Assembly (NCBI GenBank): GCA_964019425.1
Contig: OZ025796.1
Location: forward strand, 62,001-126,000
Length of the DNA stretch: 64,000 nt
Source: Flectonema sp. DT1601
Taxonomy: Eukaryota
Reading direction: 5' to 3'
A program made the translations under genes and the position numbers. Under the pieces are notes generated by a model. It worked only from the letters and a program-made list of their open reading frames with translations, was not told the DNA's origin and made no database searches. Positions 4,561 through 50,641 of this stretch are shown here, in pieces; the first letter of the stretch is position 1; every line of letters begins with the position of its first letter.

Positions 4561-7500
4561 TTAGTTCATTTCATAAATAATTCCGTCAGGTCTCATTATG
4601 TCCTGTTTTGTTTGGTTTTAAATTACCCACAGTAAACACCAGTAAACACCAGTAAACACTTTAAAAAAAACAAATAGTACACACATCCTCATCAGTGAGA
4701 TCCACTGAGATTTCAATAACCTCATTAGAAGTTTCTAAAGCAGCCAACACCTGAGCCTTGGTAGTTACGCGAGTCTTGTCAATCGCAACGATGTGCATTC
4801 CTCTTTCTAAATTACTCTGATGACGATTGCGACACGATGTTATTATCAAATTATCATTAACTTCAATATAAAAAGGTTCAGAATCACCTCTGACTACAAC
4901 ATGAGGAACTTCTCTTAACCTCCCTTGGTTTTCATACCAATTGTCTTGAGTAACACTTTCTCGGAGTTTTCTTAATTTTGTCTTAACGTACCTTATAAAG
5001 TGTACGATGTGCTCACAGAGGACACCTTCAAAAACTCCACAAATAATATGTTCACCCATTAAGACGTCAGATATAATATCCATAAGTGATTGTTTCTGTC
5101 TCGGTTCTCCCAAACTTTTCAAGAAACTGCAGGCAGCGTCACTAACTGCTTCCATCACATCTAAAACTGTATCAGTAGCATGTGATTGCAAGTAACTCCG
5201 ATACCGTTCTTCGATTGTTTCAATTAAAGTTTCAGGTAGTCTCTCATGATATACTAATTCAATGTGTGATGTCAACCAATCACTTTTTTCCATTTTCTCT
5301 AATAGCAATACCATTACTTCTCTGACATGAGATAGTTGAACACCACACAGACTATTAGCAGTCAACGGAATGGTTTTTTTTATCCATCCCTTCCTCACAG
5401 CGTCATACAAACTCTCTGTAGGTTCTGTGTCGCGATCTTTAAATGCTGCAACCAGAACAGACAACAACATTGTAATCTGATCCTCAGAAAATCCCTTCGT
5501 AGCTTCCGTCAAGGTTTTCAGTTGAGGAGTACTAAGACGATTGCAGTGTCTGTCAGGTTGGACAGCAAGCTGTTTTGTTATCATTATTTTTTTTTTTCTG
5601 ACAAGAAAGTAGTAAACCCAACGCTAAGACATACCAAATCAATAGCAGATTGCTCAACTTCGTTAGACACGACGGGTTCTTCAGGATCCAGGAATCGGAA
5701 TGGCTGTTTTAATATTATTTTTTAAACCCATCCAATGTTGTGAAGTAAACACAGAAGTCACATCAAATAACAAAACACACCGCAAGGTAAGGCATTTCAA
5801 TCTTAGGAAGGATCAAACCAGAAGCGAAGCTCAATTCCTTTTCGATGCCGTTCCAGTCGACTTTAAATGAACGCGTCTCAGTGTCGTACTTCGCATGACT
5901 CCTGCACACTTCTCCAAGAGCAGAGTGTCCGAGTTCCTGCAACAGCAGGTCCGGGCGACTCGGTGAGAACGACGACAGGTCAACGTCCTCAATCTGAATC
6001 TTCGTGTGCTTCGCAACAATCGCTTGACACTTGTTGTACTTGTCAGTCAGTGAAGTCAGAGCAGCCTTAATCATATTCTTGTGTTGAGGATAAGGAGAGT
6101 CCGTGAACGTCAACCAGAAGTCCAGTGTTCCCGGCAATCCCGGAATGTTCCCTCCTCTTCGGATGTCATCGATGATCACATTAATTCCTCCCTGTTGACA
6201 TTCGAAATCAATCGGACCCACGTTCGTCATGAACTTGTTCCAGTTTTCTTGAATCCTCTTCAGCTCATCCACAGCTATCAAATACTGCGACTCGTGAGTG
6301 TGCTCTTCGAACAGTTCTAACACCGACCTGAATGGAGTCATCAGTTCATCTTCACCATCCGTGTACTTTAGAAGTAATCTGTTACTCAACATTCTCTGAA
6401 CTCTGTTTGAGAAACTGTACAGATCTGTAAGCAGAGGTGCCAACAACGCCAACTTCACATTCTCGTGGAGCGCCATCGTCAACAGCTCAGGTGTCTCTTC
6501 TGCACTCAAACGCTCAATAGCAGTGCGAATAGAACCCTCTCTCGGTAAGTCCAGAAAGTGTTGAGACTTCCAGTGAGTCAAAACGTTCAACGCGTGACAA
6601 GCGTCTTGTTGTGGTTTTGCGAGGAGCTTTTTGTCATTGTATCTCTGCCACAGAGCTTCGACTTCTCTCTCTGCTTCCATCGCTTCAGCTCTCGATTTGA
6701 AAGATTCCATTTTCAACACATCCGACGTCATCAATTGATGTGAGAAGTATGAAAAGATTTTCTGCGTCTCATCAACTGACAACCCAGTGAAGACTCCCAT
6801 GTGAAGATGGTAGGCAATACTTCTTTCAGTCATTTGATGAACAAGATGACGGTAATCACTAATTCCTTGTTGATATCCATGAATTCGTTCTCTGATAGTC
6901 GGAGAGAACATCCACTCCCACAGAGTTTTGAAGCTTTCCGGCCAGAGAGTCAACTGAATAGCGAGGGCACCGAATTCGACAGCCCACAACAAGTAACAAG
7001 CCCCAGTACTCAGCACCTCCTGTCCTCTGGAATACGAAGCGATCGCTCCGTTCTCATCTAATTGGGTGACGCAATCAAACTTGTAGCAACCTCCGTGTGT
7101 AACATCTCCGCCAGTCTTATCCCCAGGTAGGTAACGATGCTTCTGAGCATCCACATCGAAGAACATTGAGCCCATGAATGACTTCGGGTAGGCGCAAGCA
7201 ACACATAGTGATGTTATTATCACTTCAGTCCAGTCGCTTTTAAATCCTGCCAGTAGTGTTAGTGATATGTCAACTTCACAAGTCGGATAATCTTTTACTC
7301 TCCTCGCATCGAATGCGATGCCCAGCACTCGAAGTAGCTTTGCATCTAATTTAAGAACTTTTGCGAGTTCCTCGTTCTCAAGAAACTTGTCGGCCATTGG
7401 GTGACTGCTATTTTCACCAAAGAAACACTTAAAAGCAGCGTAGTAAAATAATAATCTTGTTGATTCTACTCCACGAATAGGAGCCCAGTCAACAATCATT

Positions 7501-10500
7501 TTCACAACCTTGTTGACTTGTTCCAAACTAGTGCTCTGCATGTCACCTGAGAGCATCATCTCTCTTTGAAGTTGCAAGAATGGAGTGTGAAGAGGATCTT
7601 CAATATCTACAACAAACGGAAGGTCACCAGCTTTTGCCTTCAGAGGTTCTGAGTTCTGACACTTGTGACGCATCGCTTCTCCGCAGATTGTTGGCATTGC
7701 ACCGACTCTGCCGGAATCCGAATCCACAACCTGGTCCTGCATATACAACAGCATCGACTTGGTACCCATTCCTCTCAGTGATCCAATTCCTGATTCTAAT
7801 GTGTTCATGAAAGTGAGTAAAGAGTTTTCTATTTCTAAATCTGGAGGATTGTTAATCAGCTTCAAGTCTTCCTGAGATAATCGTTCTGGACACTTGTAAC
7901 CAGCTGGCTCAAAGATACGCTTCGCTAACTTTGAAATCTTTTCAACTGTTTCATTGTTTTCCATGAATGATGGAGCCCAGTCTCTCTTGTCTTGTTGTTC
8001 AACAGGTCTGATAAAAACAACAGCAAGAGCAATTATAAAAGCAGCTTCCTTAGCCTTCATCATAACTGATAACAATGCTTTCTTACTTGTTGGAGAATCT
8101 TCAAACTCAGACAACATAACATTGTAGCTCTCGCAATTCCTCAAGCATGTGTCGACTAACACGTGCTCAGCATCCATTCCGAGGTCGTTATCATAACAAA
8201 CATCATAGACAGCGAGATACAATTTAGAATTCATCGACTTCTCCGCGTTTTTCCCGTTGGGATTGTAACTCTCGCACTTCGATCCCATCTTCTTCCCGGT
8301 CTCCCCCTCCGCCGCACTCTGAATCCACTTTTGCATCACTCCGTTCTTTGCCAACTCCACTGGAGCTGGAATACTGGATCCACGCGTCTCATTCAGCTGT
8401 CGGATGATCCGAGCAGCCATCGAACGAGTTACGTTGCTGCTGCCCTTCGCAACCACGAGACCGATGACGAACTGAGGAACCTTCGAATCCGATGTGAAAT
8501 CTCTGGAAAGCGATGCCAACTGCAGTGCGACTCTGCATGTCGAAGAGGGGTGCTCCTTGAGAAGGCTCTCAATGATCTTCAGATCAACAGGAACTGTTCC
8601 CTCACTCGCAGTATTGCAACTCGACTTGATAAAACTCTGAAACAGATCAATCGACTTCTTGTTCAGTTTATCGATTCCACTGATCACCGCTCCGATGATC
8701 GACAAGCAAGGCGCATGTTTGCTCTGTACAATCCATTCACTAGTCACTCGATGAAGCATCGATGAGCAAGCAGTCTTGAACTCTCCCAAACGGTTCTCAG
8801 CCATTTCAGGGAACGCTTCCAGCAGTAGCTGAGGACCCAATTCATGGGCAACCCAAGCAGCGTTGTGACCACTTTCCTGACTGATGATAGATGGAGGCTT
8901 CCTCTTATCAAGTGCGCCCATAGCCGCCAGTGGCACCATCGCCATGATGTAGTCATCCACAGCAGCCGACGCAACAGAACACAGAGCACGAATACTCCAA
9001 ACAGTTTCCTCTTTACCAGGAAAGTATAGTTGATGAAGTCCTCTAACTAATTCAAATACCCAGTTCAGAACATTCTCAACGATACGCAAGTCGCTGTATC
9101 TAATTCGACGTCTAATGTGATCACTTAAGAAAGCTAGCACTAACTCTCTATCAGATTGCACAGCGTCAACAAGTTCTCTAACCATTTCATCACCAAATCT
9201 TCTCTCCAACTCAGAGGCTGTTGCGACCACATCAACTGCATTGCTTGCCACTGGAAGGGTCTCAATGATAGATGATGATCCAGGAAGAGATGGCATGGAA
9301 ACACCGACGTAAATCGTATCCAAAGTGCTGACCTTCTTCCTTCTCAGTATGTCGAAAGTCGTCGCCCGTGACGCTACCTCAAGGGCCTTCGCTACAATCG
9401 TGTCACTCTTCGCCAACTCCTTCTCCTTCCCTTTTTGCGATGCAAGACAGAGCAACGCAGAAGCATTCCGGTCATCCAACAAGAACCTCAGCGCAAATGT
9501 CAACAGCGCGCGAGGCGCCTTGTTTTCTTCGTCGATCAACCGTTGCGCCAAACTCAGCGACTGCCCGTCCTGTGCAGCAACTTCCTTCGCCATCTCAACG
9601 AGTTCCAACTCCGTCGGCTGACGGGCTCTGTAGAAGTTCACCACCACCTTCTTCACCTTCGGGCACACCTTGAACAGCTTCTTTGCAATAGCAACCTGCT
9701 CGTCGAACGGCCGCTTCAGGTCGTACAGCGCAGACGCTGGATCCTCCTCCGGAACAGGCACCCACTTGGTCGCAGCCTCGCTCTGCGCCTGCATCAACGT
9801 GTTCATCGCACGGTCCAGCAACACCTCCAGATCCCTCCATTCTGGAATTGGTCTTGGAGCCCTCTTCCCGACGATCATCGGGTCAACGTACTGCTGCAGG
9901 TCGAGCTTCACGTGCTCCGCCGCAGCATCCAGATACACCTGATCCCATCCTGATCCGAACAGTGGAGTGCAGTTACTCGCCTCCGTCAGGTTCGAGTTCT
10001 GGAACGACTGGATGATCACGACTGCTTTGTCTGTCACCATGTCCTTCTCCTTCTCCCGCACATCTGGACGCGAGCTCAGCAAGTACCGCACCTCACGGCA
10101 CTCAGGCTTTCCGAGAGAGTCCGGGCTCATGATTAGCACAAAAACGTACTGCTCCGGATCCGTCGTGAAACGGTACAGCTCCTCCTTCAAGTCCTCCCGC
10201 CCGCGTTCAGATTCCAGCAGCCCGTCCAGAGAAAGGTGCGTCAGGTGCTCGATCGGCTCCAACAGTGACGGGAAGTCTGCGTTCGACGGTGAGAACACCA
10301 CCGACCGAAGCCAGTCCGCATCATCCCCGACTCCGCCCGTGGCTGACGGTGCCACCTTGTCTCGCAGATCTTCCAGGTACCCCGTCAGATCCCAAGGTGC
10401 CAAGTCTCGGAAGTACGCACGCAGGTACGCCGGTGCATCCTTCTTCAGCACTCTCTGAGCCAGAAGCATCCCCTCCGGTTTCAGAACCTGCAACATTCGG

Positions 10501-13500
10501 CAAGAGCTCGCCTTCCACCTCGCGTCGTCTGCGTTGCTCCCAGCCAAGAACCCGTCCAATGCATCGTCGTTTCGGATACGCAAGTTCACCGGCAGGTTCA
10601 TCAGAGTTCCCTGTTGAACCCCTTCCAATATCACAGAGTCGAACGTATCCACATCCGAGTCTCCGAACAGGCAACGATTCCGCACTGCTAGTGTCTTCTG
10701 GAACTTCGCTAACTTCTGCCTCACTTCCATCGCCGCCTCTCTCTCCTCGGGTTTCAGCTTCGCCAACGCGAACTCCAGAATGTCTTGCACCGTAATCGGG
10801 AACTTCTCCAGACGGTTCAGGAACGGAGAAGGCAGCACGTTCCCCATTCCCGTCAGCTCCCTCTTCGTCACGTGCACGATACACTGGAAATCTCGGTGCA
10901 CTCGCTTGTACTCCAGAGCCGCCCCCACAGCCACCGCCACGAAGTGCAGCGTCTCGTTCGCCCCGCTGCTTGCTACCACATAGTTCTGGTTGAACACGTC
11001 GAACAGGCACGCGTCGATGTCTCTCGTGTTGGTCAGCCACACCGTCCGTCCGGCCTCCATCGCCGCCACGATCTGCGACACCACCGTCACAGGCATCAGC
11101 TCGTCCCCGTATGAAAGTGAACTCAACGACAAAACACTCAGGTTGTTGAACTGCTCCACTCCCGTCTGCCGCAGCAGCTGAAGCATCGAACCGTCCTCCG
11201 TCGTGTCCACCAGCAGCTTGAACCGCACCCACATGTCGTTCAGGTTCTTCCCCGAAGCCTTCTCCGTCGCACGGTTGTTGTCCTTCAGCGAGTCGATCAC
11301 CACGTCCAGCTTCCGACGCAGCATCGGCTTCAGCTCATCAACCGAGTACGCCCCGTCCACCTCCCCGAGCGCCTCTCCGAACCTCCGCAGCGCCGCGTCG
11401 AAGTATTCCGAAGGTCCGTTGAAGTTCCGCTCCAACGCCCGCAGCACCAGCTCCGGCGACACCGTGATCAGCCCTTCCCCCGAGTTGTTTCGACGGATGT
11501 ATCGCATCATGTGGAACAAGTCTCGCAACCCAAACCACCAACGGAACTTCAAGCTCGGGTCGAACCCGACCAGCGTCTCCTCCTCGTCTTCCTTCGGAGG
11601 AGGGACCAATCGGTGGAACGCATCGCAGCAAGCCGGGATGATCCGCTTCGACACTTCGCACAGTCCCCGCACCCCGTGCTTGCTCAAGATCCCCGCACAC
11701 ATGTTCGTCAGTTCCTCCGGACGCGGCTTCGCCATGAACACCGTCACGCATCGGTTCCCGATTGCCGTGTCCAGCGACGTGTTCGTCATCAACACCGAAG
11801 CCAAGTTCGCCCCTTCCAGGTAGTAGTGCAGCACCTTCAGCGCCCACTTCCGCTCCACCGTCGCCCCCTTCACCAAACCAGCCTCGTCCACGAACAGCAG
11901 CGTTCGCTTGTTCAGTGTTCCAGAGCTGTCGTTCTCCAATTGCTTCTGGTACGCTTCCTCGCACTTCTTCTTGATCTCGTCCGCGCTGCTCTGCGCGGAT
12001 CCCTGGTAACGGCAGATGTCCGAAATGTGGCAGAAGTCTTTCCAGAACAGTCCGCATCCCTGCATGTTGTCTCGGATGATGTTGTTCGAAAGCGTCTTCG
12101 AAGTCCCCGGAGCTCCCTGCAAGATCACCGCCAACCGCAGCTCGAAGCAAACCATCTGCACGAACAGGTTCTCCATCAGCCCCTGGTGAGCGTACACCGC
12201 ATCCGGAAGCTTCAAGTGGTCGCTGTGGCAGTGGTACGTCACCGCCCGTTGCACCACCGTGTCGAACGCCACTCCCTGCGGGAACGCACGCACTTGCTTC
12301 TCCTCGTCCTCCCCCGCAAGCTGCGACAGCCGCTCCGTCAGCGCCTTCGACAGAGACGCCCGCTGCTCAGGAGGGAACCGGAAGTAGTACGAACACGCCA
12401 TGGCCACCGTCATCGCTGACAGCGTCCGGTCCCAAACATCAGCAGCCTGCTTCCCGTTGAACGAAATGTAGTCCACCCCCTGCTTGTAGAAGAAGTCGAA
12501 CAGCTTCATCGTTCGGTGAATGTCTCGCTGCGAAACCGTCGATCTCTTGTGAGCAACTGCCCGCTGCGCGAACTTGTGCGTGTGCAGCAGCAGGTCCGAC
12601 AGCGCCCGCAGCTGCGACTGACGGATCGATGCCGCGAACAGGTTTCGGTTGCTTCCCATCAGCCGCATGATGAACATCTCCCGTTGGTTCGCCGCCAGCT
12701 GCTTCCACGGAACAATGTGCTCCTTCAGCGCTGGCTGCATCGGAGTCACGTCGAACCCGAGCTTCTCCCCAGACTCCTTCGTCTGCTTCTTCGTCTCCTC
12801 CTCCGGGTACTCCTCCACATCCAGTCCCTCCAGCGACGCGTCCTTCGTCGTCGGGTTCACCGCTCCCAAGAACGACACGTTCGGTGGCAGGATTCCGTTC
12901 GTCTCCGGGTGACTCAACTCCCACTTATCCCAATACCGATCCACCACAATTCTCTTAATCAATCCCAACATGTTCGTAGCATTCATCTCATCGATCATTA
13001 TCATGAAGTTGATCGTCGGACACTTCAAAGCCTTCTCCAGCATCGGAGACATTTGATCGAACAACATATCCACCGTCATGTCGTATCTCATCAGGATGAT
13101 CAGTGAACTCTTCGACCGCTTCAGAGTCAGAGTTCTCCTCAGCAGGTCTGCGAGAGCCTCACCGGAATTCTCACCTCCATCTGAAAGGTCACGGAGGAGA
13201 CTAGGTGGCGGGTCGAGGATCGGAGAAAGTCGAATTTGGTTTCTCAGCTCTGCGCGAACTGCTCGGCACAGGGCAGGACCGTTTGCCTTCGCCGCAGTGA
13301 AAGCTTCCTTAGCCCAGGTTTGAATTCCATCAAAAAGATGTCTTTTGTTTAGAATCGATTCAAATTGTGAAAAACTCGCGCCCGCAAGTTTCCTCATCGT
13401 CTGAGAACTGAGTGCGCTTCCCATGGTGTCACGAATTTGTCCAACGAGGAAACCACCACTCACTCTATTTAATGAATTCACAACTTCTTCGAGTGCGGTA

Positions 13501-16500
13501 TAGAGTTTTTCAGAACGCTCTTTATCATTTCCAATGTCTTTGGGTACTCCAGAGTTTAGTATCTTAACGGAATCCCTAAACTTCTGCTTGCGAGGGTCGT
13601 CTAATATCTCAGCAATGTTTGGATTAGATATTCTGTCATTGATCAGAGGTCCTAAAACATCGTTAACACATTCTCTCAGGTAGTCTAAGGCGTCGAAGTC
13701 ACCCTTGTCTACTAATATTCTCATACATTGAATCGAACGAACACTTCCGTTTGCAAAGTTAGCGTCTACAATGATTCCTGTCTTTCCATATCCGAGACTA
13801 ACGTCAGGTTCTCCGTCAGGAAATAGTTTCTTTAGTTCCTTTGTTTGCTTTACCCATTTCGCAAATGTTGAGATCAAATCATTATGACCTTCTCTCTTTA
13901 CGGCTGCTGATGCATTTGGAGGAAGTTGTAGTAAGTCAGAAAGCATTGTTACAGCGTAACTCTTTCCTGTTCCTGATGGCCCTTGAAGAATTGGTGGATC
14001 CTGAATTCTAAGATGGCAATACATTTGAACTAACTTCTGTAAGAAGTCAGGGATGAGGACGTAGTTTTGTCCTCTCAAAGCCGTCACGGCGCTACGTTTC
14101 TCAATACAAAGTTCATCAGCCAAAGATTCGATGAGTGTGTGAAGTGGTGCAGTGCTTTGCTGTTCGCGTCGTTTTTGAGCAGCGGCACGGAGTTGTTGTT
14201 TCTGACCCTTTTCATCAGATTTGTCTGCTTTCATTTGAAGCATGAAATCCAATCGCTCATCAGTTTCATCGATTATTGCTTGTCGTAGTTTTTGTAATGC
14301 GGTAACAGCTTCCCCCTCAAAAGGTTCTGCAAGCTTGTCCATTGAGAACTCCATTCGTTGTTTGATACCACCACCCATAACAACAATATGATAATTATCC
14401 TTACTATGAGGGAATAACATCGTATGCATTTCATGCATTAATGTTCTTACAACTAGAGCTTGTTTCTTTGTTCTTCTTGCTGAGTCAAGTGATTTTAACT
14501 TTGTTATATACATCTTATATTGGTACACGAGATGCTTTAATGATCTGACTAACATTCTGTTAGTAATAGTTTCCATTTGTAATTCTAATTCCTGTCTTTC
14601 AACTGCCGGTATCGATTCAATCTCAACGGTGTCATGTCCAAGACACATTAGCTTTAATGTATTCAGATCATGTTTATTGTCACTTGGAACATCAGTGAGA
14701 GTATCTTTAATGAAGCTCATTGCTTCTTGAGCACCAGGTACTTCCTTAATATCAAAATCGTCTAAAGTGCCAGCAGTAGCTAAACCAGAACACGCCAACA
14801 GAGTGATATCAGTCATCCCATTTGACCGTTTCCATGGACCATTCACATCCTTTTCTCTTCCGAGAGATTCCTTCGCGTCAGGAGGATGTTGGAACTCGAC
14901 AACCAAATGCCAAGTCTTCTTCGGAATCGAAACGGCCAGACCGCTGTTCGATTCGATCCGACCAAAGAAGATCAGAGAATCCAAAACCTGATTGACGATC
15001 TGAGGGTCACTGTCTTGTCCGACGTGAATCACTAGCAGTCCGTGTCGTTCCCTCATCGGTCCCATCAGCCGAGTGCAGATCTCATCCAGCGAGTTCTTCG
15101 TCGAATCCAAATCCAAGCGAGTCGGTAACACGCTTCCGAACTCTCCAGACTTGATCTTCTTGTCTATCGAATAAGACTTTCCAGTTCCACATCTCTGAAG
15201 GTAGTAAGTGATTGACTTGAAGTTGTTCAGCTCACAGCATCTACCCATCGCCCACTTCTTCCACTTCACGTCACACGACAAGTTGTCCACGTACTCCACA
15301 GTCTCGTCACTCCCATCACCGCCCGTCACCACAGCGATCAGTTCTTTGTGCTCGTGTTTCCCTTCTGTCGCGAGCCGCACCTCATTCTGTTGGTCCGGTG
15401 ACAACAAGTTCAGGTTCATCACAACGAGTCTTCCCTTTTTCGTCTGCTTGTACAGCTGCAGGAACGCCCTCACGTTCTCCGCTGGTGTCTGCGCAGTGCA
15501 GTCCAACACGTGGTAAGGACGCACGTCTCCCTCATGCAGCGCTATCGCAAATAACTTCCTGTCTGACACAGCTAATCTACTGGTGTCTACGATAGCTCCC
15601 TCGACAGTACGAGTCTGCAGTTGTCCGTAACGGGCCGCCGCCGGGTCGTAGTTGCATGAAATTCGAGGGTCCTTCGCGTTCTTGTTCTTCTTCCTCAGAA
15701 TTTGCAACAGTTTTCCGATTCTGTCCAACGTGCTCAGGGCTCCTTCCGCAATCACCGCCTTCGCTACAGCCGTCGACTCCCAATCTGTGAACATCTCCAG
15801 TCCGTTCGTTGAACCCTCGGCTGCCTCCCTCAGTGCGATACGGAGCTCAGCCGCTCGGCAGACTGCGCCAGTCGATTTCTCGATTGTGTGCCAGACAGCG
15901 AGTTCGTCTTCAGTCATGGAGTCCATTGAAGACTTTGAAACAGTCGCCTGAAGTTGTACAGCAGGTCGAAAGTCAACAGATTGAAGTTCTGGAATATTAC
16001 TTTTATTAGCACTTTCCCAACCAGTACCAAATTCATGGCGGTTCCAATACAGACCTGAAGCATCTTGTTTTAACTCTTCAAGTGATGAGCAGGCCAATAC
16101 ATTAACTCTCGCTCCTTCACGCCAACTCTTACCATCTCCCCAAGTCCACTTCGTACAGTAGTGTGGGAATGGTTGATCCATTGAAGACATGTACAGCCCT
16201 TCGGTATTCTTTCCATTTTTAAAGGAAACCACCCATCTCTGCACATTCGAATCTCTGCTGAGGCGAAGTTCATCATTTTCATAAATGACGAATCCCTTCT
16301 TGTCAGTCTGCTTCTGAAGTGTCAGAATACCACCAGGACGAGACTTTGATACGACTCTGATACAATAAGGCTTCTCTTGGAATCCATCAACAACAGTCCA
16401 TCTCAGAGGTTCTGATCCAATCCTCGCTGTTCCCTTGCACGGGTTCGACCAAGCAACAGGTCTTTCTGCAGCATCAGTGACGCACCAACGACCGTCCCAA

Positions 16501-22500: not shown

Positions 22501-22727
22501 CAGGCTGTTGGAACTTTTCTGTGTCTATCGTTCAACTCCTTTGCGTTTTCAGTAAATAATCTTTTGAAGATGACTATAATATATGTTGCTGCATCTTCAT
22601 TCCAGGTACCAGTGAGAAGAGATTTCAAATTCACCTCCCAATTCTCAGTAATACCAACAAGTTTTTTCAGATCTGCCTGCGGTAGCTCAATATTTAATTC
22701 GTTCTGGACGCCTACATTATCTCGCAT
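4561..22727 (-). CDS. Giant RNF213/mysterin-like multi-AAA+ ATPase, paralog A (~5,980 aa). Predicted exons 22727-5781, 5703-5635, 5569-4685, 4602-4561
   Basis: 5654-aa ORF with YLQRCGTGKSY, LQGPSGTGKS..IMIDEMN, LQGAPGTSKTLS..LLFVDEAGL, FGLRDLFHMMRY, LERNFNG, FDVFNQNY, RVHRDFQCIV and PSPFLNRLEK, matching the RNF213 AAA-core motif series in order. Three phase-0 GT..CAG introns join the ORF in frame to a 69-nt exon, the 4661-5584 ORF and a terminal DIMRPDGIIYEMN* exon. Confidence 0.88.
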
Positions 22728-22767
22728 TTTATTTCAACTGTTGAAAAAGAGAAGTCATCCATTGTTT

Positions 22768-23103
22768 TAAACCCATACTCTCATCTACTAATTGGTAGAG
22801 TAAACCCATACTCTCATCTACTAATTGGTAGAGTAAACCCATACTCTCATCTACTAATTGGTAGAGTAAACCCATACTCTCATCTACTAATTGGTAGAGT
22901 AAACCCATACTCTCATCTACTAATTGGTAGAGTAAACCCATACTCTCATCTACTAATTGGTAGAGTAAACCCATACTCTCATCTACTAATTGGTAGAGTA
23001 AACCCATACTCTCATCTACTAATTGGTAGAGTAAACCCATACTCTCATCTACTAATTGGTAGAGTAAACCCATACTCTCATCTACTAATTGGTAGAGTAA
23101 ACC
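22768..23103. repeat. Perfect 33-bp minisatellite, 10 copies plus 6 nt
   Basis: TAAACCCATACTCTCATCTACTAATTGGTAGAG repeats at 22768, 22801 ... 23065 with no spacers. Confidence 0.97.
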
Positions 23104-25511: not shown

Positions 25512-25549
25512 TTAAAGGAAAATTAAAAAAAGGAAAAACTATTTTTGGG

Positions 25550-27180: not shown

Positions 27181-27211
<31 letters not shown>

Positions 27212-28974: not shown

Positions 28975-30550
28975 CCGGAATATCCGCAGGGGGGGGACTT
29001 TGATACGATACGAAAAGATTTATCTGGGAAGAATACTGCAGGTCTTTGCACAAAAAAGAATCGGCACCTCACTAAATAATTCTCACACTTTGTTTTTGTT
29101 TGTGCGCAACCGGAAACAAGCCTATAAAGTAAGGGTGTTAACGTTACGCTGCCACAATTCTCTTTCGCTCGTAAAACATGTCTTCGAGATGAAAAAATAA
29201 AAATACTGTCACCATGAAACAGGAGGCGTTGAACATTGCCGGAATATCCGCAGGGGGGACCTTTGATACGATACGAAAAGATTTATCGCAGGGGGGGGAA
29301 CTTTGATACGATACGAAAAGATTTATCTGGGAAGAATACTGCAGGTCTTTGCACAAAAAAGAATCGGCACCTCACTAAATAATTCTCACACTTTGTTTTT
29401 GTTTGTGCGCAACCGGAAACAAGCCTATAAAGTAAGGGTGTTAACGTTACGCTGCCACAATTCTCTTTCGCTCGTAAAACATGTCTTCGAGATGAAAAAG
29501 AATCGGCACCTCACTAAATAATTCTCACACTTTGTTTTTGTTTGTGCGCAACCGGACCCCTTAATATTTAAAACACTTCTCTAATTTCTTTTAGGGACGC
29601 ACGCATTTCGCTCTACCCTTGATATTTAAAACACTACCCCAGTTTTTTTGTTTTTTTTTTAGGGGGGGGGGGGGGAACTTTGATACGATACGAAAAGATT
29701 TATCTGGGAAGAATACTGCAGGTCTTTGCACAAAAAAATAAAAATACTGTCACCATGAAACAGAAGGCGTTGAACATTGCCTGGTTTCTTTGGTGGAGGC
29801 CACGTGAACGTAGTTGAGCACCTCTTGCCTACGCTACCGTAACAGTGAAAAACAGCTGTAAATTAAAATCAATGTGAAAAAAATAAAATGAAACCAAAGG
29901 TTAACAGTGGACGAATCCGACGTAAGGCTTTCCTAGACTACTCGAGTCTTCAGCGGTCCGCTCGGTGATAGCAGCCTAGGAAGGACAAGCTCACCCATCT
30001 GCCTGGAGACCATTCAAATTGGCTCGCTCTAAATTGGCGACCTAAACGCTCTACCCTATCGCCGCGATTGCCACTGACAACCTCTAACCAACTATACTAC
30101 GACCAAACATAAGGGGAAAGGGGAAAGTGTGCTTATACCTGTACAGCCACGACTCTCGATTTCCGTAGTGGAGCCCCCCGCGGCACTCCCTATATAGTGC
30201 ACTATGCTTGTCTCTTTTGCTATATAACTTGTCCCTTGGGCTATATAGGAAAAGCAGCAAAGAACTCAACATGGAAAAAGCCGTTAAAACATTAGTCTGG
30301 TTAAAACGGATCGGTGGGTAAAATTACGCAAGAACAACCATAAGGTCTCCCACGGTTTAATGTAGCACATCTCCACGCCAGTCTCAATGACCGAGGTAAT
30401 GTACTAAGGGGGAACTTTGATACGATACGAAAAGATTTATCTGGGAAGAATACTGCAGGTCTTTGCACAAAAAAATAAAAATACTGTCACCATGAAACAG
30501 AAGGCGTTGAACATTGCCTGGTTTCTTTGGTGGAGGCCACGTGAACCGGG
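28975..30550. repeat. Rearranged cluster of near-identical repeats
   Basis: CTTTGATACGATACGAAAAGATTTATCTGGGAAGAATACTGCAGGTCTTTGCAC occurs near 28998, 29301, 29678 and 30415, with a truncated copy near 29261. Sub-blocks are shuffled between copies. Confidence 0.9.
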
Positions 30551-40400: not shown

Positions 40401-43400
40401 CACGGAACAATGTGCTCCTTCAGCGCTGGCTGCATCGGAGTCACGTCGAACCCGAGCTTCTCCCCGGACTCCTTCGTCTGCTTCTTCGTCTCCTCCTCCG
40501 GGTACTCCTCCACATCCAGTCCCTCCAGCGACGCGTCCTTCGTCGTCGGGTTCACCGCTCCCAAGAACGACACGTTCGGTGGCAGGATTCCGTTCGTCTC
40601 CGGGTGACTCAACTCCCACTTATCCCAATACCGATCCACCACAATTCTCTTAATCAATCCCAACATGTTCGTAGCATTCATCTCATCGATCATTATCATG
40701 AAGTTGATCGTCGGACACTTCAAAGCCTTCTCCAGCATCGGAGACATTTGATCGAACAACATTTCCACCGTCATGTCGTATCTCATCAGGATGATCAGTG
40801 AACTCTTCGACCGCTTCAGAGTCAGAGTTCTCCTCAGCAGGTCTGCGAGAGCCTCACCGGAATTCTCACCTCCATCTGAAAGGTCACGGAGGAGACTAGG
40901 TGGCGGGTCGAGGATCGGAGAAAGTCGAATTTGGTTTCTCAGCTCTGCGCGAACTGCTCGGCACAGGGCGGGACCGTTTGCCTTCGCCGCAATGAAAGCT
41001 TCCTTAGCCCACCTTATGGAACCGTCAAGGGAATGCTTTTTCGTAAGAATACTTTGCATTTGGCCATAACTAGCACCTGCAAAGCTCTTCATCTGAGATG
41101 AACTCAATACGCTTCCCATGGTGTCACGAATTTGTCCAACAAGAAATCCTCCACTTACGATGGCTAGTGACCTTACAATCTCATCGAGGGAAGCAAAAAT
41201 CTTTTCTGCTGCCTCCTTGTCTTTTCCCTCTTCTCTTTCAACTCCGTCTTTCATGATAGCAATGGCATCTCTGAATGCTTGTTTTCTAGGGTTGTCAACA
41301 ACATCAGCAATGTTCGGATTAGATATTCTGTCAGCAATAAGAGGTCCTAAAACATCGTTAACACATTTTCTCAGGTAGTCTAAGGCGTCGTAGTCACCCT
41401 TGTCAGCTAACAGTCTCATACATTGAACTGGAGGATGCTTAGCCTCTTCCATAGTCGCTTCAAGCATGATTCCCATCTTTCCAATCTTAACATCAGCATC
41501 ACCATCAGGGAATAGTTTCTTTATGCCGGGATCAGTTCTGATGAATTTATTGAAGACCGCAATTAAATCATTGTGACCTTCTCTTTTAAATGCTGCTGAT
41601 GCATTTGGAGGAAGCTGCAACAACTCAGAAAGCATAGCAACAGCGTAACTCTTTCCTGTTCCTGATGGCCCTTGAAGAATTGGTGGATCCTGAATTCTAA
41701 GATGGCAATACATTTGAACTAACTTCTGTAAGAAGTCAGGGATGAGGACGTAGTTCTTTCCTCGAAGAGCGGTGAGGGCAGTTTTCTTTTCGATGCAAAC
41801 TTCATCAGCCAAACTATCAATTAATGAATAAAGAGGTGCACGAGAACGTTCAAGACGTTGTTTCTCAGCCATCTCACGAAGTCTCTCTTTTTGCTTAACA
41901 GTGTCCGTCTTGTCAGCTTTCATAGATATCATAAAGTCAATACGTTCTTCAGACTCATCGATCATTGCTTTTTTAAGTTTTTGAATAGCAGTCACTGGCT
42001 CTCCTTCAAAACGTTGATTAAGCTGATCAATTGAAAATTCCATTCGTTGTTTGATGGTACCAGTCATTACAACAATATGAACATTATCCTTACTATCAGG
42101 GTTAATCATCGTATGCATTTCATGCATAAATGTTCTTACGACTAGAGCTTGTTTCTTTGTTCTTCTCAGAGAGGCTGGGTCTCTCTGTTTGTGAGTATAC
42201 ATCTTATATTGGTACACAAGATGCTTTAATGATCTGACTAACATTCTGTGAGTTATCTTTTCTAACTCTAATTCTAAGTCAAGCTTTTGGATTTCAGGAA
42301 GAGAATCGACTTCAACAGTGTCATGTCCAAGACACATTAGTTTAAGTGATGTGACATCATGTTTACTATCACTTGGTATGTCTTGTAAGTTATCTTTAAT
42401 CCACTCAACTGCTTCTTGAGCACCAGGTACAGCATTTATATCGAAGTTCTCGAGAGCTCCAGCAGTAGCTAAACCAGAACACGCCAACAGAGTGATATCA
42501 GTCATCCCATTTGACCGTTTCCATGGACCATTCACATCCTTTTCTCTTCCGAGAGATTCCTTCGCGTCAGGAGGATGTTGGAACTCGACAACCAAATGCC
42601 AAGTCTTCTTCGGAATCGAAACGGCCAGACCGCTGTTCGATTCGATCCGACCAAAGAAGATCAGAGAATCCAAAACCTGATTGACGATCTGAGGGTCACT
42701 GTCTTGTCCGACGTGAATCACTAGCAGTCCGTGTCGTTCCCTCATCGGTCCCATCAGCCGAGTGCAGATCTCATCCAGCGAGTTCTTCGTCGAATCCAAA
42801 TCCAAGCGAGTCGGTAACACGCTTCCGAACTCTCCAGACTTGATCTTCTTGTCTATCGAATAAGACTTTCCAGTTCCACATCTCTGAAGGTAGTAAGTGA
42901 TCGACTTGAAGTTGTTCAGCTCACAGCATCTACCCATCGCCCACTTCTTCCACTTCACGTCACACGACAAGTTGTCCACGTACTCCACAGTCTCGTCACT
43001 CCCATCACCGCCCGTCACCACAGCGATCAGTTCTTTGTGCTCGTGTTTCCCTTCTGTCGCGAGCCGCACCTCATTCTGTTGGTCCGGTGACAACAAGTTC
43101 AGGTTCATCACAACGAGTCTTCCCTTTTTCGTCTGCTTGTACAGCTGCAGGAACGCCCTCACGTTCTCCGCTGGTGTCTGCGCAGTGCAGTCCAACACGT
43201 GGTAAGGACGCACGTCTCCCTCATGCAGCGCTATCGCAAACAACTTCCTGTCTGACACAGCTAATCTACTGGTGTCTACGATAGCTCCCTCAACAGTACG
43301 AGTCTGCAGTTGTCCGTAACGGGCCGCCGCCGGGTCGTAGTTGCATGAAATTCGAGGGTCCTTCGCGTTCTTGTTCTTCTTCCTCAGAATTTGCAACAGT

Positions 43401-46400
43401 TTTCCGATTCTGTCCAACGTGCTCAGGGCTCCTTCCGCAATCACCGCCTTCGCTACAGCCGTCGACTCCCAATCTGTGAACAGTTCTAGTCCGTTCGTTG
43501 AACCCTCGGCTGCCTCCCTCAGTGCGATACGGAGCTCAGCCGCTCGGCAGACTGCTCCAGTCGATTTCTCGATTGTGTGCCAGACAGCGAGTTCGTCATC
43601 GGTCAGTTTATCGGTTGCAACCTTCGAAACCAAATCATTCTTTATGTTTACTATTGCCTGGAGCTGGACAACAGACTTTAGTTTACGAACAGCTAATTCA
43701 GGAAGATCAATACTCATAGCGTTATCCCAACCGGTACCAAATTCATGGCGGTTCCAATACAGACCTGAAGCATCTTGTTTTAACTCTTCAAGTGATGAGC
43801 AGGCCAATACATTAACTCTCGCTCCTTCACGCCAACTCTTACCATCTCCCCAAGTCCACTTCGTACAGTAGTGTGGGAATGGTTGATCCATTGAAGACAT
43901 GTACAGCCCTTCGGTATTCTTTCCATTTTTAAAGGAAACCACCCATCTCTGCACATTCGAATCTCTGCTGAGGCGAAGTTCATCATTTTCATAAATGACG
44001 AATCCCTTCTTGTCAGTCTGCTTCTGAAGTGTCAGAATACCACCAGGACGAGACTTTGATACGACTCTGATACAATAAGGCTTCTCTTGGAATCCATCAA
44101 CAACAGTCCATCTCAGAGGTTCTGATCCAATCCTCGCTGTTCCCTTGCACGGGTTCGACCAAGCAACAGGTCTTTCTGCAGCATCAGTGACGCACCAACG
44201 ACCGTCCCAATAAGTCATTCTGTATTTTCCATCTTTTCTGTTGTAGGTAGGAATCCATCTTCTGTAGAGACCATCACAGACGCCATCACTACCCTTACCT
44301 GAAGTAGTTGGAGTGGTTCCCTTAACTACAACTGATGCGCTTTGTACATCCGAAATTGACTGAGGTCCAGCAGAGCTGACGAAAGTACACTTCACATCCT
44401 TTCCGTTGATTACAACATAGGGAACAAGAGGACCATCAGCTCTCGGGAAATCCTTAGTAGTAACGGAGTTAAACATACGCTCTCCGTCACAGAGACAACC
44501 GATTGTGCCCTCTCCCAAGTCAACAGTGAAGGTAAATGTGAACTCTTGAGAGTTTTGGTTTGTTGTAGTTCCCATGTTACTTGAGTTCTTAAGAATGAAA
44601 ACACTTCCATTCTGCTTCAGTCGCATACCAAACATTGAAGTTTCTGGGTCTGTTGCCTTATCAAGTGAAACACCTGGAGCAGCAACACCAATACTCAGAA
44701 ATTCATTAAGAGAACGACCCTTTGCGTGGATGGAGAATGTATGAGGACCTGGTCCTACCATTACTCTGTTTCCTAATGCTACCGTTGGTGATTCAGTCTC
44801 TGATGTCACAGTTGGTCCATCGATCTTCAATCCCTTTCCGATTTGTACCGAATTCCAACCCAATACCTCATCGACTGGCTCACCAGGACTGATGACCGCT
44901 TTAGCAGTCTTATTGACTAGGTAAACACAAGGCCTTAAGCTTCCCTTGACTTCGGTAAACCGAGCAAGGTTTCTCCTACCGTTTAACTTGAAGTCGATTG
45001 TCTTCGCTTTCTGATCATAAATAACGGTGATGATATCACCACTTCGGAATGCTCTGGCGTTGTCAACATCGAGTCCATTGTGTCTGAGAGTACCATTTCT
45101 CATATACCAATAGGCACTCTCTTTGTTGGGAGACTCGTCTACCGGCTTTCCAAGATCAAGGTCCTTCGTACAGAGACCTATTCTTGAAGCAAAGACGTCA
45201 CCTGTGATCTTTATTCTCCAAACCTTGGCAGGTGCCGGGGAGATAGCAATGGCAGGTGCTGTGCCACGTACTTTGACAATTTCTCTTCCGTTAGCAGAGA
45301 TATCGGCTGATTTTGAACACACCAACCAAATATAAGCAGGAATTACTGTGGCTGTAAAGTTTGGTTTTGATTTCGTTGCTTCAGAACGGAACTCTTTTGC
45401 GAGATCAGAAATCTTTTTAGTTCTTTTGTTATTAACTGCAACGATACGCATGCCTGCTTCGAATCCAACGGATTCCCACAGTGAGAATTCCGGGCAGTCA
45501 GTTATGTAAAGTGTGCTCGCCATCTCCTTCAGTCCGAGGGATTTCAATGAACTTCCGCACTGAACGTGAATGTTGTGTTCCGCACCTCTGCAATCATCAG
45601 ACCACTTCTCAACAATCGTGAATGCATCGTCAGCCTGTACTTTTGCGTTCAAACAAGGCTGTTCGTTTAAGAATCCGTGACTGTCACTTTCCCTCCAGTC
45701 ACCCATCTGCCATGGCTGAAGGTAAGATTCATTATCAGACATCGATACTAATAATCTCCTCGCGTTCATTACAGGTTTATCATACACAACCCATCCACCA
45801 GCAACAGGAGAGAGTACTAATCCGTCTTCACGTTTGTACATCCAGAGACCCTTTTCAAACTCTCCATCACAGACACCAAGTCCTTCAAATAGTAAAGGTT
45901 CGTTGTCTTCAGGGAGCTTTCCCACCACCGATACTCCCCTCTTAGAATGCAGTGGTGTTGTTTTAACTCTGATAGAGACATCCTCAATTGATCCTCCCTC
46001 TTGAACGGCACTTGTTTTCTCAACGCGTTGAATCATTTTCATCTTTCCCTTTCTCCAGTTTTGTAAACGACTCACGTCTTGTACGAAGTTGCTTAACGCA
46101 GCAGTACTTCTCATTAACTCAGCAGTTCTCACAAGCTCAGCAGGAGTGACACAGATAATCTCCGGGTACTTCTGACACATTTTCACAAACAGGGAAGTCG
46201 TGCTCTCGGAGTCCTTCGCCCACTGGCCCTCCAATGACTGCAGCATCTGAGTCAGACGAGCAGCGTCATCATGTCTGAAAGTGATTCTCCTCGATCTGAA
46301 CTCAATGTGACCCTCACTGAAGAGGGCACACGCCGTGTTGAAAGCCCTCATCACCTCACGTGCTTGGTTAGCGAACACTTCCAATGAACTGTGCTCATTA

Positions 46401-49400
46401 CGCTGCAACGTCGCTCTGTAGACAAGATCACTGTACTCAGCCATGTTTCGCAACTTACCGTCGTGAGCATCGAATTCGAGAGCAGGTTGCCCAGTTGTTG
46501 GGAGGTTGATGATAATCAAAGCAGCACTTCTATCAATGTAGTCATCCTCATCAACTTGAATACCTTCCGGGATTCCCTGAAGTCCTGATGCGTAGTGACA
46601 GACGATTATCATTCTGTCTGTAGTTCCTGACTGTTCTTTAATCATCTTCACTAGTTTCTCAATCTCATCAACAGCAGTCATCTTCTCAAGCTTCTTTTGA
46701 ATGTTTCGCACGTCTTGCAGGGTGTCATCTCCAAATGAGTTGTTCATCAGCGACCAGAACCCATCGCCAGTGATATCAGACCCAGCCACGAACCCACTGT
46801 TCGAAATAGGAATTCTCATCTCAACACCACTGTAGGGGATGTCACCTTGCTCACCAGCGTCTCTCTTGTCTTGAATTAATTGTGATCTCCTCTCATTGAA
46901 TTGCTCTACGTATGCTGAAGACGCCCACACGAATGGATTCACAAAGTTTGTCAAGTTGAAGAAAGTCTGGAAAGAAGCGTGTTGCAAATCTCTAGAGTTC
47001 GAAAGAACTGATGCAAGACCTTCATCCTGTGCTTCAGGGTTCTCACGAGTGAATTCAACCAACTCCGTACAGTTGTACACCGTCCTCATGATTTCCAGAA
47101 CACGGTGCTCACAACCACAACTCACTCGCTTGATTTCAGTCGAACGTATCTTCGCATCTTTCAACGTCACCTTCGACAAGTCATCGTCGAGAAGGATACG
47201 TTTTTCAGTTTCGTTGAAGAACTGCGAGTGGAATCTCAAATCCTTTTGAGGAGAGTTCACCATTTTTCTCAGAATTTCCAAGTCGTGTACGACAAAACGA
47301 AGAGGAAGACCTCCGTCAAGGAGAGCATCGATGGCTTCTGGGTCTGTGCCGATCCGCTCCATCAGAGCCTTCTCTTGTCTTTTTCTACCCTGCTCGTAGT
47401 TTCCATCAGGCGGGTGAAGCCCAGCAACAGCCTGTTCGATGGTGCTATCCAATTTGATACTTGACAGAGACTTGCAAGCATCTCTGAAAGAATTTTGGAA
47501 TTCAGCCAGTGAGACTCCCTTGTTGTCACACAGAATGAGAAAGTGTGCTCGCAGTAACGGACTCGATGTAGCATGCGGTAGAGTAAGAGCTTCTCCGAGT
47601 GTCACACCAGCCTTCTTCACCAGCTTCTCGAGATCATCCAAGTTCACGAGTTCCTTGCGTACAATGGATTCCGTAAATTCATTCAAAAGTTCTCCCGCTC
47701 CTTTAACTTCCCATTGCTCTACGAGTTCCCTCAGTACATTACCGCTGTGCTCAAGGTTCTTAATAGGGGCGTTGAAGTCAAGTTCTGGAAATGTGATTCC
47801 ATTACGTTCATGAATTCCACTGTGCTGTTTAGATAAAGAGTACACATGTCGACTGATGCGGTGACTATTCAATCGATTTTGGAATTCTTTAGTAGCTGTT
47901 TCGATTCTCTTAGTGAACGCACCTACCGGAGTGTACTTACTCTTCAACAGCTGAACGAGATTTACGTCAATTGGAATGGAGTCCCACTTAACAGAACGTG
48001 AGTCAAAGTAAACAGACAGCAGGGCATCTGCAGCATCAGCACGAATACCCTTGAATCTTGCCATCTCTTGAACATCACCTTTTATTCTATCAGAAGAAAA
48101 GATCCAGTTGTCGAGTTCGTGAACCTTTTGAGTGATTACGATTCTCTCACAGCACAGTCTCCAGAGATTCAAAATGAAGTCACCGTAATCCTTTGAGTGA
48201 TCTTTTCTATCACGATCAGCAAATACTCTTTTAATTAAACCAACTGACGGAACACCTGAATGAGTCTCTAGCCATCTAGCATCCCATTGAGAGATGTTAT
48301 CTCTTAGCATTGGGAAACAGGCAGCAATGGCTTGCTTACCCCAGACACAAGAAGCGGTCACTACTGAAGATCTTTCATACTTACACAAGTGTTGATCCAT
48401 ACCGGAACTCCAGTAACCAGTTACTGTATCAGGGCTTCGTACAGCTCCTTGAACCATTGAAAGAACTACAGCGAATGTTTTGTCTCTAGGTTCGTGCATA
48501 TCGATGTCAGCCATTGAGAACCTCTCTGACCTTTTCTCTTTCTTCACCGTAATTCTAAATCTCAGTTCGAGATCACTGTACTTCACATCAGATACGATTC
48601 CAGATGAAAGAGCTGGATGGTTCAAAGCAATATGATGACCAGTTATTTTAAAGGCTTCAGGATAGTTTCGATTATTAAATCCATTCAACCAAGTCCATCC
48701 TCCATCAAAATCATGACGAGACACGAGAGAGAGTGCATTGACAACAGCAAGTGGGTCACCACTCTGACGAACTTCTGTCTGTGTGATGAGCTTCAGGGAA
48801 GCCATCACACCAGTTGGTGTTGGCTGCAGATCTTTCTCTTCGAATGCCAACCCGTATATGGATATTAAATTGACGCAAGGATGTCTCATCGCTTGACTGT
48901 GCAGCCATCCCTTCGGACCAGAAATCGTTCCCTTCAACTTCGTATCGGAATCCTCAATCGCACGAAGTACTACGATCAGAGTCTCCGGATAGCAGTGGCG
49001 GACATTAAACTTGTCTCCCCTGTCTCCAAGAAACTGTAACAGTGACGATGCGAATCCAGGTAACTCGCTGAACGCCTTCTTACACTTATCGTACAGGTCA
49101 GGGGCAGGAGGTGCCTTCAAAGAGGTTTGAAGAATTCTCGAAGCGAATGCGACGACAGTTTCTCCACCAATTTCATCCTTTTGGAAAATAAATTTCCAAA
49201 CCTTGTCCGTGTTCCTCTCTTGAAGGATAACTGAAAGCTTTGTGTGCTCGCTGTACGAATGATGGTCCATTGAAGGAAGGGGTAACCAGAGTAGGAAGTC
49301 CTCGAGCCCGATACCAAAGTGAGGAATTATTTTACTCACAGGACACTGAGGAAATTGCTCACTTTCCAGCTTAAAGCACTTCGTCAGCTGGGGTTCGCTG

Positions 49401-50641
49401 CCCGAACAGATGAACTCGACTACTATGTTGTCGTGGCTCTTCTGGTTGAACCGAAGTTCAATTCCGTGGTCGCAAACCCATCTTCCGATAATAGCGCGCT
49501 CTCCTCCTCCTCTGCGTCCTCTTCCCACACCAACGCCGTCCTCACCAAGATCAGTATTTCCGCCGCCACGACCTGCTTCCTGTTTAGCCTGTTCGATACG
49601 AGAATCGTCACCTAACAGATTCCAAACCTCCTCAGGAGGAACTCCGTCTGCAGCGTGATGCAAAATGTTATCGGCCTCATTATTATCGAGCAACACTGGT
49701 CCAAAATCATCCGATCTTGGAGCCGTAGACTTTGGGTTTGCCTGCCACAATAGCAACTCCGCAGCACGTCTGCTGTCGACAGGAGCTTCGAGAAGCTCAG
49801 AAATAATCTTTATCCATTTTTGTTGAGTCAGACGCATAGAAGCAATGTACTCCATCAGGTAAGCGAAGGCTGCAGCAGCGTGCTTACCGTATGGAAGTCT
49901 GCGAGCCCATTCCTTTATTTTTTTGACACAACTTTCGGATAGCCTGCTCTCTCTAATAAGTCCCAAGTCCTGTAGACCTCTCTCACGGTGAGTACTGGCT
50001 TCAGCCATTCTGATACAGGCCGAGGTAATCATTTCATAAATAGCAAGTCTGTCTCTTGAGATAGCATCCACTAAGTGTTGCTCATCTTCTGTGCATCGCT
50101 CATTGGCTACAATACCCTTCAGGACTTCATGTACGCAGATCATTATCGTAAGTACCACTGAGCTTGTTGTTTTTTTGTACTCTTCACATAATTTTCGTGT
50201 TTCAAAAGTAACTTGTTGGACAGTCTTGTAGAATTTTCCCACAATCGGTACTCTGATTGCTGTTTTCCCGTGATCTGAGTACTCCTTTCCGTTCCTAGAG
50301 AGGGAAACAGCGAATCCATTGAAGATGAAAGAAGCGCATTCCTCGTGCCACTTTCCTTTCATGATTTCCGTAAGGAAACGAGTCCAGTTCACAGCAGCTT
50401 CTGTAAGAAGGTGGGGCTCTGCAGGAGGCTCTCTCATGACGACAATATCGTCGAGACCCATTCCTCCTAACCCCATCATCCCACCTATCCCACCCCCCAA
50501 ACCCATCATTCCTCCCATTCCTCCCATGCCCATCCCTCCCATTCCCATCCCTCCCATGCCCATCATTCGGCCTCCGGGATACCCACCACCCGCCCGCCGT
50601 CGATCCCTCATCATCCGTTCCCTTTCAATGTCTCTCCTCAT
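31445..50641 (-). CDS. Giant RNF213/mysterin-like multi-AAA+ ATPase, paralog B (~6,250 aa). Predicted exons 50641-33467, 33343-33275, 33161-32265, 32203-32117, 32047-31985, 31900-31445
   Basis: 5744-aa ORF with the same AAA motif series as paralog A; first ATG at 50641. Five phase-0 GT..CAG introns link it in frame to the ORFs at 32241-33134 and 31445-31843. The first two intron positions are identical to paralog A and the third is at an equivalent position. Confidence 0.88.

Follow-up and report, generated by a model that had tools for sequence, protein, structure and literature searches.

In the marine diplonemid protist Flectonema sp. DT1601, two neighbouring giant RNF213-like genes, here called A and B, lie in tandem on the minus strand of a 64,000-nucleotide stretch of DNA, the window (contig OZ025796.1 of assembly GCA_964019425.1, positions 62,001 to 126,000). 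Their reading frames align across 15.8 kb with 91% identity, and this identity is distributed as a mosaic in which near-identical tracts alternate with tracts whose synonymous sites are saturated. The mosaic is very probably the product of gene conversion between the two copies. The best explanation of the locus as a whole, which we consider reasonably likely, is a conversion mosaic in a tandem RNF213-like pair whose diverged islands are probably kept by selection. The encoded proteins are 5980 (A) and 6248 (B) amino acids (aa) long, the copies are 27.7 kb apart, and the first exon is about 17 kb in each:

5781..22727, minus strand: gene A exon 1, 5649 codons, predicted RNF213-like giant AAA+ ATPase / E3-fold protein
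4561..5703, minus strand: gene A exons 2-4 (5703-5635, 5569-4685, 4602-4561), short GT-AG introns, diverged tail
33467..50641, minus strand: gene B exon 1, 5725 codons, N-terminal extension rich in Gly/Met
31445..33343, minus strand: gene B exons 2-6 (33343-33275, 33161-32265, 32203-32117, 32047-31985, 31900-31445), short GT-AG introns

Tracts were called in the exon 1 codon alignment of A and B by a two-state hidden Markov model on codon identity. The model returned 42 identical tracts (4054 codons; proportion of synonymous differences, pS, 0.015; of nonsynonymous differences, pN, 0.002) and 42 diverged tracts (1582 aligned codons; saturated pS of 0.76; pN 0.32). An original prediction, made from the letters of the window, had described four near-identical blocks that alternate abruptly with strongly diverged ones. 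All four blocks were recovered in the codon alignment, with 0 differences in 774 nucleotides (nt) at 5774-6548, 34 in 4068 nt at 9250-13320, 28 in 1803 nt at 18390-20192 and 2 in 444 nt at 20922-21365. The diverged blocks were recovered as well, with nucleotide identities of 51.6% (N-terminus), 67.2% (20193-20921), 70.0% (second SPRY domain) and 71.8% (13317-14771), as were the diverged C-terminal exons, whose spliced tails are identical at 157 of 317 aa. The alternation is thus real and finer than had been proposed, and further long identical tracts lie at 14772-15791, 16026-16568, 17844-18203, 8127-9083, 7485-7850 and 6753-7100. The supposed insert at about 13320-14770 is indeed diverged, but only about 13920-13100 is inserted relative to RNF213, while 14770-14070 aligns with the RNF213 AAA core. 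From the N-terminus of A onwards, the main tracts and regions are as follows:

21363..22727 (A aa 1-455; B 50641-49112), minus strand: largest diverged block, helical repeats and a predicted beta-barrel at aa 321-435 (21767-21423)
20922..21362 (aa 456-602; B 49111-48671), minus strand: identical tract, predicted helical linker between two beta domains
20193..20921 (aa 603-845), minus strand: diverged block, most of the second predicted beta domain (aa 592-699), with A- and B-types common to F. neradi
18393..20192 (aa 846-1445; B 47908-46109), minus strand: near-identical tracts, stalk-like region with two small islands
15792..18392 (aa 1446-2312), minus strand: cassette between stalk and AAA ring, with Trp-rich repeats, a weak PDZ-like segment, SPRY1 and SPRY2; 37% diverged, many small islands
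14772..15791 (aa 2313-2652; B 43480-42461), minus strand: identical tract containing an AAA2-type Walker A at 15197
13317..14771 (aa 2653-3137; B 42460-41012), minus strand: diverged region, end of the AAA2 region and most of the AAA3 insertion of about 275 aa
9240..13316 (aa 3138-4496; B 41011-36935), minus strand: longest identical stretch, AAA3 Walker B to hinge; GC4 (defined below) 0.6-0.8
6549..9239, minus strand: E3-module region, mostly identical with small diverged islands
5765..6548 (B 34234-33451), minus strand: terminal identical tract, 0 differences, extending 16 nt into intron 1

Along exon 1, synonymous differences cluster far more than chance would give, so that synonymous divergence (dS) is uneven. 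Among 4624 degenerate codons that specify the same amino acid in both copies, the longest identical run was 337 codons (mean 61 and maximum 126 in 5000 shuffles) and the number of runs was 460 (mean 857, minimum 803). Identical tracts of at most 25 codons numbered 24, against at most 13 in 600 redraws; lone identical tracts of 6-8 codons may be due to chance. Perfectly identical tracts of 10-25 codons are embedded in saturated DNA, and conversion is therefore able to act next to heterology. Of the diverged tracts, 27 are no longer than 20 codons and persist beside converted DNA. Every one of the 42 diverged tracts holds at least one amino-acid change, and the 58 residual differences within identical tracts are mostly synonymous (pN/pS 0.14). 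The diverged share is 76% in the N-terminal 890 aa, 60% in the AAA3 insert and 31% in AAA1-2, and falls to 15% in the hinge and E3 region, 3% in the stalk and 1% in the AAA3-6 core. All five Walker motifs examined lie inside identical tracts, as does a D-C motif (Cys5219) discussed below; the AAA3 Walker A (13982) occupies a 38-codon identical tract enclosed by the diverged region 13317..14771.

The base composition of these tracts also points to conversion. The GC content at fourfold-degenerate sites (GC4) is 0.26-0.28 in diverged tracts and 0.20-0.31 in four neighbouring genes, whereas it reaches 0.59 in tracts of 300 or more codons (Spearman 0.59, p 4e-5, 42 tracts). With distance from a diverged block it climbs through 0.22, 0.33, 0.37, 0.48, 0.53 and 0.59 to 0.74. 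When GC4 was fitted, distance alone gave a log-likelihood gain of 149 and residue conservation only 0.6 more. The gradient is therefore independent of residue conservation, as expected for GC-biased conversion, and a rise in GC at third positions is generally taken as a sign of conversion (PMC2720389). A five-codon island at 10697-10683, with four synonymous and two nonsynonymous differences, lies within the most GC-rich 4-kb shared stretch, and a GC dip around it is absent at 150-codon resolution.

Further evidence comes from the sister species Flectonema neradi, in which both types, A and B, are represented among nine transcript isoforms (Trinity paths) at aa 600-890, 2218-2273 and 2653-3203 and in the tail. 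Since both types of the same blocks are present in F. neradi, the duplication predates the split of the two species. Within the three internal regions, sites that unite sequences of the same paralog number 80 in diverged tracts, against 7 that unite those of the same species and 3 crossed ones; the corresponding numbers are 0, 7 and 0 for identical tracts and 35, 3 and 5 for the tail. Trees built on diverged columns return (A,A'),(B,B') as one Flectonema clade, with a support of only 0.75-0.81 for A,A', and those on identical columns return (A,B) at a support of 1.0. Outside the three regions, A and B agree with each other yet differ from F. neradi at 364 of 3767 positions, and in shared tracts A matches B at 99% and F. 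neradi at 90% of aa. The shared tracts thus carry species-specific changes in both copies. Tract boundaries move by tens of codons between the species; aa 846-892, for example, are identical here and not in F. neradi. Together, the sister-species site patterns, the block trees, the GC gradient and the location of the Walker motifs support well the proposal that segmental conversion homogenises the motor.

P0001, a protein encoded by another assembly, has at each position the residue of either B or A and never a third one, and this holds also for copy-specific residues of the shared tracts. It is a fusion of a B front and an A back that switches between aa ~3220 and 4011 (window 13070-10700), within the longest shared tract, and is either an assembly collapse or a real product of unequal crossover. 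Together with the assembled contig and the F. neradi transcriptome, it was used to judge whether the identical blocks could stem from assembly or polishing, with reads of one copy overwriting the other or two haplotypes joined in tandem. Exact runs as long as ~1 kb are compatible with such an artefact, and P0001 shows that the locus can collapse or recombine. However, an artefact could not produce the GC gradient, the independent F. neradi transcriptome shows the same architecture, most of the residual differences are synonymous, the copy-specific residues recur in P0001, and the flanks of A and B are not duplicated. Collapse or polishing, on which the original prediction would have fallen, is therefore very unlikely. 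We consider it equally improbable that the duplication is recent, with the core under very strong purifying selection and a few segments having changed in bursts, or that islands were imported from a third, unlinked paralog. Other, distant paralogs do occur in F. neradi and its relatives, and the island at 10697-10683 could be a short import. Purifying selection, however, cannot keep synonymous sites at 1.5% beside saturated neighbours, and the islands group with F. neradi A' and B' in one clade apart from all other paralogs. Both versions are largely refuted by the F. neradi site patterns and the block trees.

The two proteins are related to RNF213, which was the only source of strong sequence matches in the PDB (phmmer E 3e-22). 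HHalign matches are colinear with an RNF213-type alignment over the stalk (aa 1089-1451, 82%), AAA1-2 (2386-2935, 96-97%), AAA3-6 (3213-4195, 100%), the hinge (to 4566, 96%) and the E3 core (5237-5644, 84%). The dynein-like AAA+ core has intact Walker A and B motifs in AAA3 and AAA4, and its colinearity with RNF213 suggests six AAA units. An insertion of ~275 aa lies inside AAA3, between its Walker A and B. A model of the E3 region (aa 4801-5649; predicted local distance difference test, pLDDT, 82) matched RNF213 in Foldseek (E 1.2e-8, template-modelling score 0.41-0.50), and all five matches below E 1e-3 were to RNF213. A RING domain was found neither in A or B (no Pfam hit at E 0.01) nor among the precomputed domains of diplonemid homologues. 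The RZ zinc ligands (C4505, H4509, C4525, C4528) are absent as well, the corresponding loop of about 35 aa lacking them and giving no zf-RZ hit at E 1. In the place of the RZ finger the following residue was noted:

7071..7073, minus strand: Cys5219, candidate nucleophile, in an invariant G-D...D-C loop (window 7140-7010) at the place of the RNF213 RZ finger; in an identical tract

The D-C motif is invariant in 27 of 27 aligned sequences. Global HHalign puts Cys5219 on the cysteine of the RZ D/E-C-G motif, but at a probability of 0.5%; the RZ nucleophile of RNF213 is C4516 (PMC11549300). The G-D...D-C loop without zinc ligands is, from its sequence, a candidate for a new type of cysteine E3 active site, and the family is filed as RNF213-like, not as RNF213.

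The inserted cassette combines Trp-rich repeats and a weak PDZ-like segment with two SPRY domains; the first of these, SPRY1 (17504-17184), is for the most part common to A and B, and SPRY2 (about 17030-16660) has largely diverged. Three Trp-rich repeats without a Pfam family flank the SPRY pair (18200-17850, 16640-16026); the first and second are related (HHalign 95%), and a comparison with the ESM Atlas gave unnamed clusters only (0.90, low recognition). In a model of the N-terminal region (pLDDT 83), most of each beta domain falls in diverged sequence, and the helices that connect the two are identical. The beta domain at aa 321-435 matched best avidin-, Gid4- or lipocalin-type barrels (Z about 8, root-mean-square deviation 2.9-3.5, 91-110 aligned residues), which can serve only as a lead. 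CBM20 was not among its best 50 VIA matches, in which the second beta domain was barely covered; Foldseek with the N-terminal model gave generic helical-repeat matches only, and the two beta domains showed no profile similarity to each other (0.3%).

In the mechanism that we propose, long-running GC-biased conversion between A and B would keep most of exon 1 identical and raise its GC content. It would end 16 nt into intron 1, with the tail exons staying diverged, and selection would remove conversions that overwrite paralog-specific residues, so that old diverged islands are kept. A single type of motor and catalytic site may then be paired with two variants of target recognition, formed by the modules that have diverged, namely the N-terminal beta domains, SPRY2, the AAA3 insert and the tail. 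Acting like RNF213, the proteins would coat intracellular microbes or membranes in an ATP-dependent way and ubiquitylate them through a cysteine. That selection, rather than a purely mechanical barrier, protects the islands is somewhat probable. The two recognition variants with an RNF213-like mode of action are proposed by homology and appear possible, though short of probable. Selection fits the short saturated islands, the contrast between the diverged beta domains and the identical helices that join them, and the pace of change. When tracts of equal family conservation are compared, the diverged ones evolve 1.6-12 times faster between species, and of the residues conserved in other genera 14-19% are changed in diverged tracts vs 1.5% in shared tracts.

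The AAA2/AAA3-insert region is also variable in two other diplonemids, which was counted in favour of selection. Two isoforms of D. japonicum (P0003/P0054) differ in a single block, equivalent to A 2744-3103, and 87 of their 113 differing sites fall in tracts that are diverged in the window (27% expected). The largest block that differs between isoforms of R. euleeides (P0007/P0056) is 2878-3011, with 19 of 41 sites in window-diverged tracts (20% expected). Each variant pair groups within its own species, indicating independent origins, and the variants may be paralogs or alleles. Groups of Namystynia RNF213-like isoforms (P0025/P0026/P0078-P0081 and P0027/P0028/P0082) likewise show long identical and long diverged blocks. 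These could be further converted pairs or Trinity chimeras, and were left uncounted because the sharing of Trinity paths can produce such blocks.

Several observations weigh against the selective part of this explanation or narrow its basis. In diverged tracts the pairwise nonsynonymous divergence (dN, 0.41) is far below a saturated dS (pS 0.76), and therefore there is no pairwise positive selection; the diversification at dN/dS above 1 that an NLR- or MHC-type model implies was not seen in this pairwise comparison. Family-wide conservation is also lower in diverged than in identical tracts (0.39 vs 0.57); the diverged tracts would therefore be the first to escape conversion without any selection for difference, and their faster change fits relaxed constraint through redundancy as well. 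For the N-terminal 455 aa, the SPRY cassette and the E3 islands only one type (mostly B) was seen in F. neradi, and A-type N-termini of that species were not found, with 0 matches to the N-terminal 2300 aa of A among 7992 shorter-protein candidates. Ligase activity is only putative because the RING and the RZ zinc ligands are absent. Lastly, neutral simulations with a mismatch barrier gave 61-87% identical codons and 22-34 islands in 4 of 28 settings, and selection controls gave only 1-4 small islands against 27 observed.

These points are the substance of an account in which conversion is real and the islands are passive. Poorly constrained segments would gather clusters of mismatches, conversion would halt there mechanically, and the segments would diverge freely with no selection for different function. 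The lower family-wide conservation of the diverged tracts, their dN/dS below 1 and the four mosaic-forming settings, in which conversion halted at 2-3 clustered mismatches, speak for it, and the drop in GC towards the boundaries is expected under either model. Most neutral settings, however, ended almost all-identical or almost all-diverged; in a first set of 40 settings with two seeds each the outcome was mostly all-or-none, with one run at 68% identity and 17 islands. Those that did form mosaics had younger islands than the observed ones (pS 0.58-0.63 vs 0.76), and six simulations with selection matched pS and amino-acid divergence better than the neutral runs. The identical tracts of 10-25 codons within saturated DNA, the frequent change of residues conserved in other genera and the variability of the same region in three genera also argue against passive islands, which we hold to be rather unlikely. 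All simulations were abstract, crude and mostly single-seed, and do not decide between selection and barrier. An amino-acid change in every island was weighed as proof of selection and downgraded, as neutral runs likewise contained only 0-2 purely synonymous islands. Of the original interpretation, the conversion of the motor is thus well supported, whereas the maintenance of the diverged segments by selection for specificity is plausible only, given dN/dS below 1, lower family conservation and similar mosaics from neutral simulations.

Apart from exon 1, the two genes differ at their ends. The tail of A matches the A-type tail of F. neradi at 209 of 318 aa and that of B the B-type tail at 232 of 324 aa; the B tail also has a weak PDZ-like match and an additional C-terminal segment not present in A. 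No further RNF213-like copy was found in the spacer between A and B, and the 64-kb window holds two copies, just as two types occur in F. neradi, while P0001 represents a single fusion. The closest named relatives are all diplonemid, namely F. neradi (~90% aa identity in shared tracts), followed by Diplonema, Rhynchopus, Lacrimia and Namystynia; 36 pattern matches in metagenome contigs yielded 0 confirmed relatives. A perfect 66-bp tandem repeat lies just upstream of gene A (22768-23103), and short near-identical direct repeats of 35-213 bp are clustered downstream of gene B (28985-30546). Spacer segments 24289-24783 and 25798-26463 are probable mobile-element remnants, with one weak match to a DDE_Tnp_1-like zinc finger (E 0.04). 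One spacer fragment resembles what we take to be the start of a Penelope-type reverse transcriptase. Domain searches identified five neighbouring genes on the same strand as A and B:

1114-3891, minus strand: vWA protein with a long poly-Gln tail
50960-54085, minus strand: calpain-like protein
54712-56703, minus strand: flavin adenine dinucleotide (FAD) glycerol-3-phosphate dehydrogenase-like protein
57061-58077, minus strand: GCD14 tRNA methyltransferase
62955-63542, minus strand: class V aminotransferase

The locus is a real instance of mosaic concerted evolution, of unusually fine grain, in what appears to be an RNF213-like family not described before. The process is already known, and the family, the grain of the mosaic and the zinc-less E3 site appear to be new. 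No literature on this family or on protist RNF213 homologues was found among the papers listed, judged by their abstracts, in a search of mostly open-access literature; supplements of genome papers could list the genes. As a natural map, the islands show where two copies of a 650-kDa RNF213-like protein can differ while having the same motor, and this map bears on how RNF213 recognises its targets. The locus also offers an unusually clean dose-response of GC-biased conversion within one exon, in Euglenozoa, and the family points, from its sequence, to an E3 of RNF213 type that lacks both a RING and RZ zinc. In practical terms, such pairs collapse in assemblies into false or real fusions, as with P0001. 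Diplonemids harbour bacterial endosymbionts (PMC13598402, PMC12171722), and a role in defence is therefore plausible. A wider scenario, which we regard as unlikely in its entirety, is a cell-autonomous defence of diplonemids against intracellular bacteria. It would be based on RNF213-like ligases with a zinc-free catalytic cysteine that diversified as converted twins with a shared motor and active site and swappable recognition modules. The AAA2/AAA3-insert region would be a cassette whose divergence arose separately in three or more genera, and new front/back combinations would come from crossovers within the long shared tract, as in P0001.

Compared with RNF213 (mysterin), the pair has a colinear stalk, AAA core, hinge and E3 module, intact AAA3 and AAA4 Walker motifs and a matching E3 fold. 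Its divergence peaks in the N-terminal part; in simian RNF213 positive selection acts on this part (CBM20 and stalk), although point mutants did not prove a binding role there (PMC11549300). Unlike RNF213, it has neither a RING nor RZ zinc ligands, with the invariant D-C instead. Among the matches listed, its first N-terminal beta domain looks like avidin/lipocalin/Gid4-type barrels and not like CBM20; the SPRY-SPRY cassette, the AAA3 insert, the PDZ-like segments and the converted paralog pair set it further apart. Tandem arrays of Trypanosoma brucei are likewise same-strand euglenozoan duplicates that combine homogenisation and differentiation in one locus (PMC1855330), but here there are two copies only, 27.7 kb apart, with islands older than speciation. 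The original prediction had likened the pair to MHC and plant NLR (R gene) clusters. Like the pair, these consist of putative immune genes in which some modules are conserved and others variable, and their paralogs undergo conversion (PMC3924837, section 3.2). Those clusters, however, contain many paralogs and pseudogene donors, and their conversion makes haplotype diversity. The comparison fits less well than that with two-copy pairs of the opsin or RHD/RHCE type because only two copies, both intact, were seen and conversion erases rather than generates diversity. Mosaic concerted evolution is known from several such pairs, including human red/green opsins and RHD/RHCE (PMC3924837, section 3.2), mammalian BMP8A/B, DDX19A/B and TUBG1/2 (PMC2720389), copepod GOT1p1/p2 (PMC3728101) and Arabidopsis halleri HMA4 (10.1101/2025.10.29.685298). 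Like A and B, these are two close copies in which paralogs are closer than orthologues in part of the gene, third-position GC is raised in converted parts, and islands of divergence have boundaries kept across species; in the opsin-type model, selection acts against conversions that overwrite paralog-specific residues (PMC3924837, section 3.2). The A/B pair differs from them in its 84 alternating tracts within one 17-kb exon, most of whose boundaries have no intron or large indel, in islands down to 3-20 codons with saturated synonymous sites, and in a GC4 that ranges from 0.2 to 0.8 in a single reading frame.

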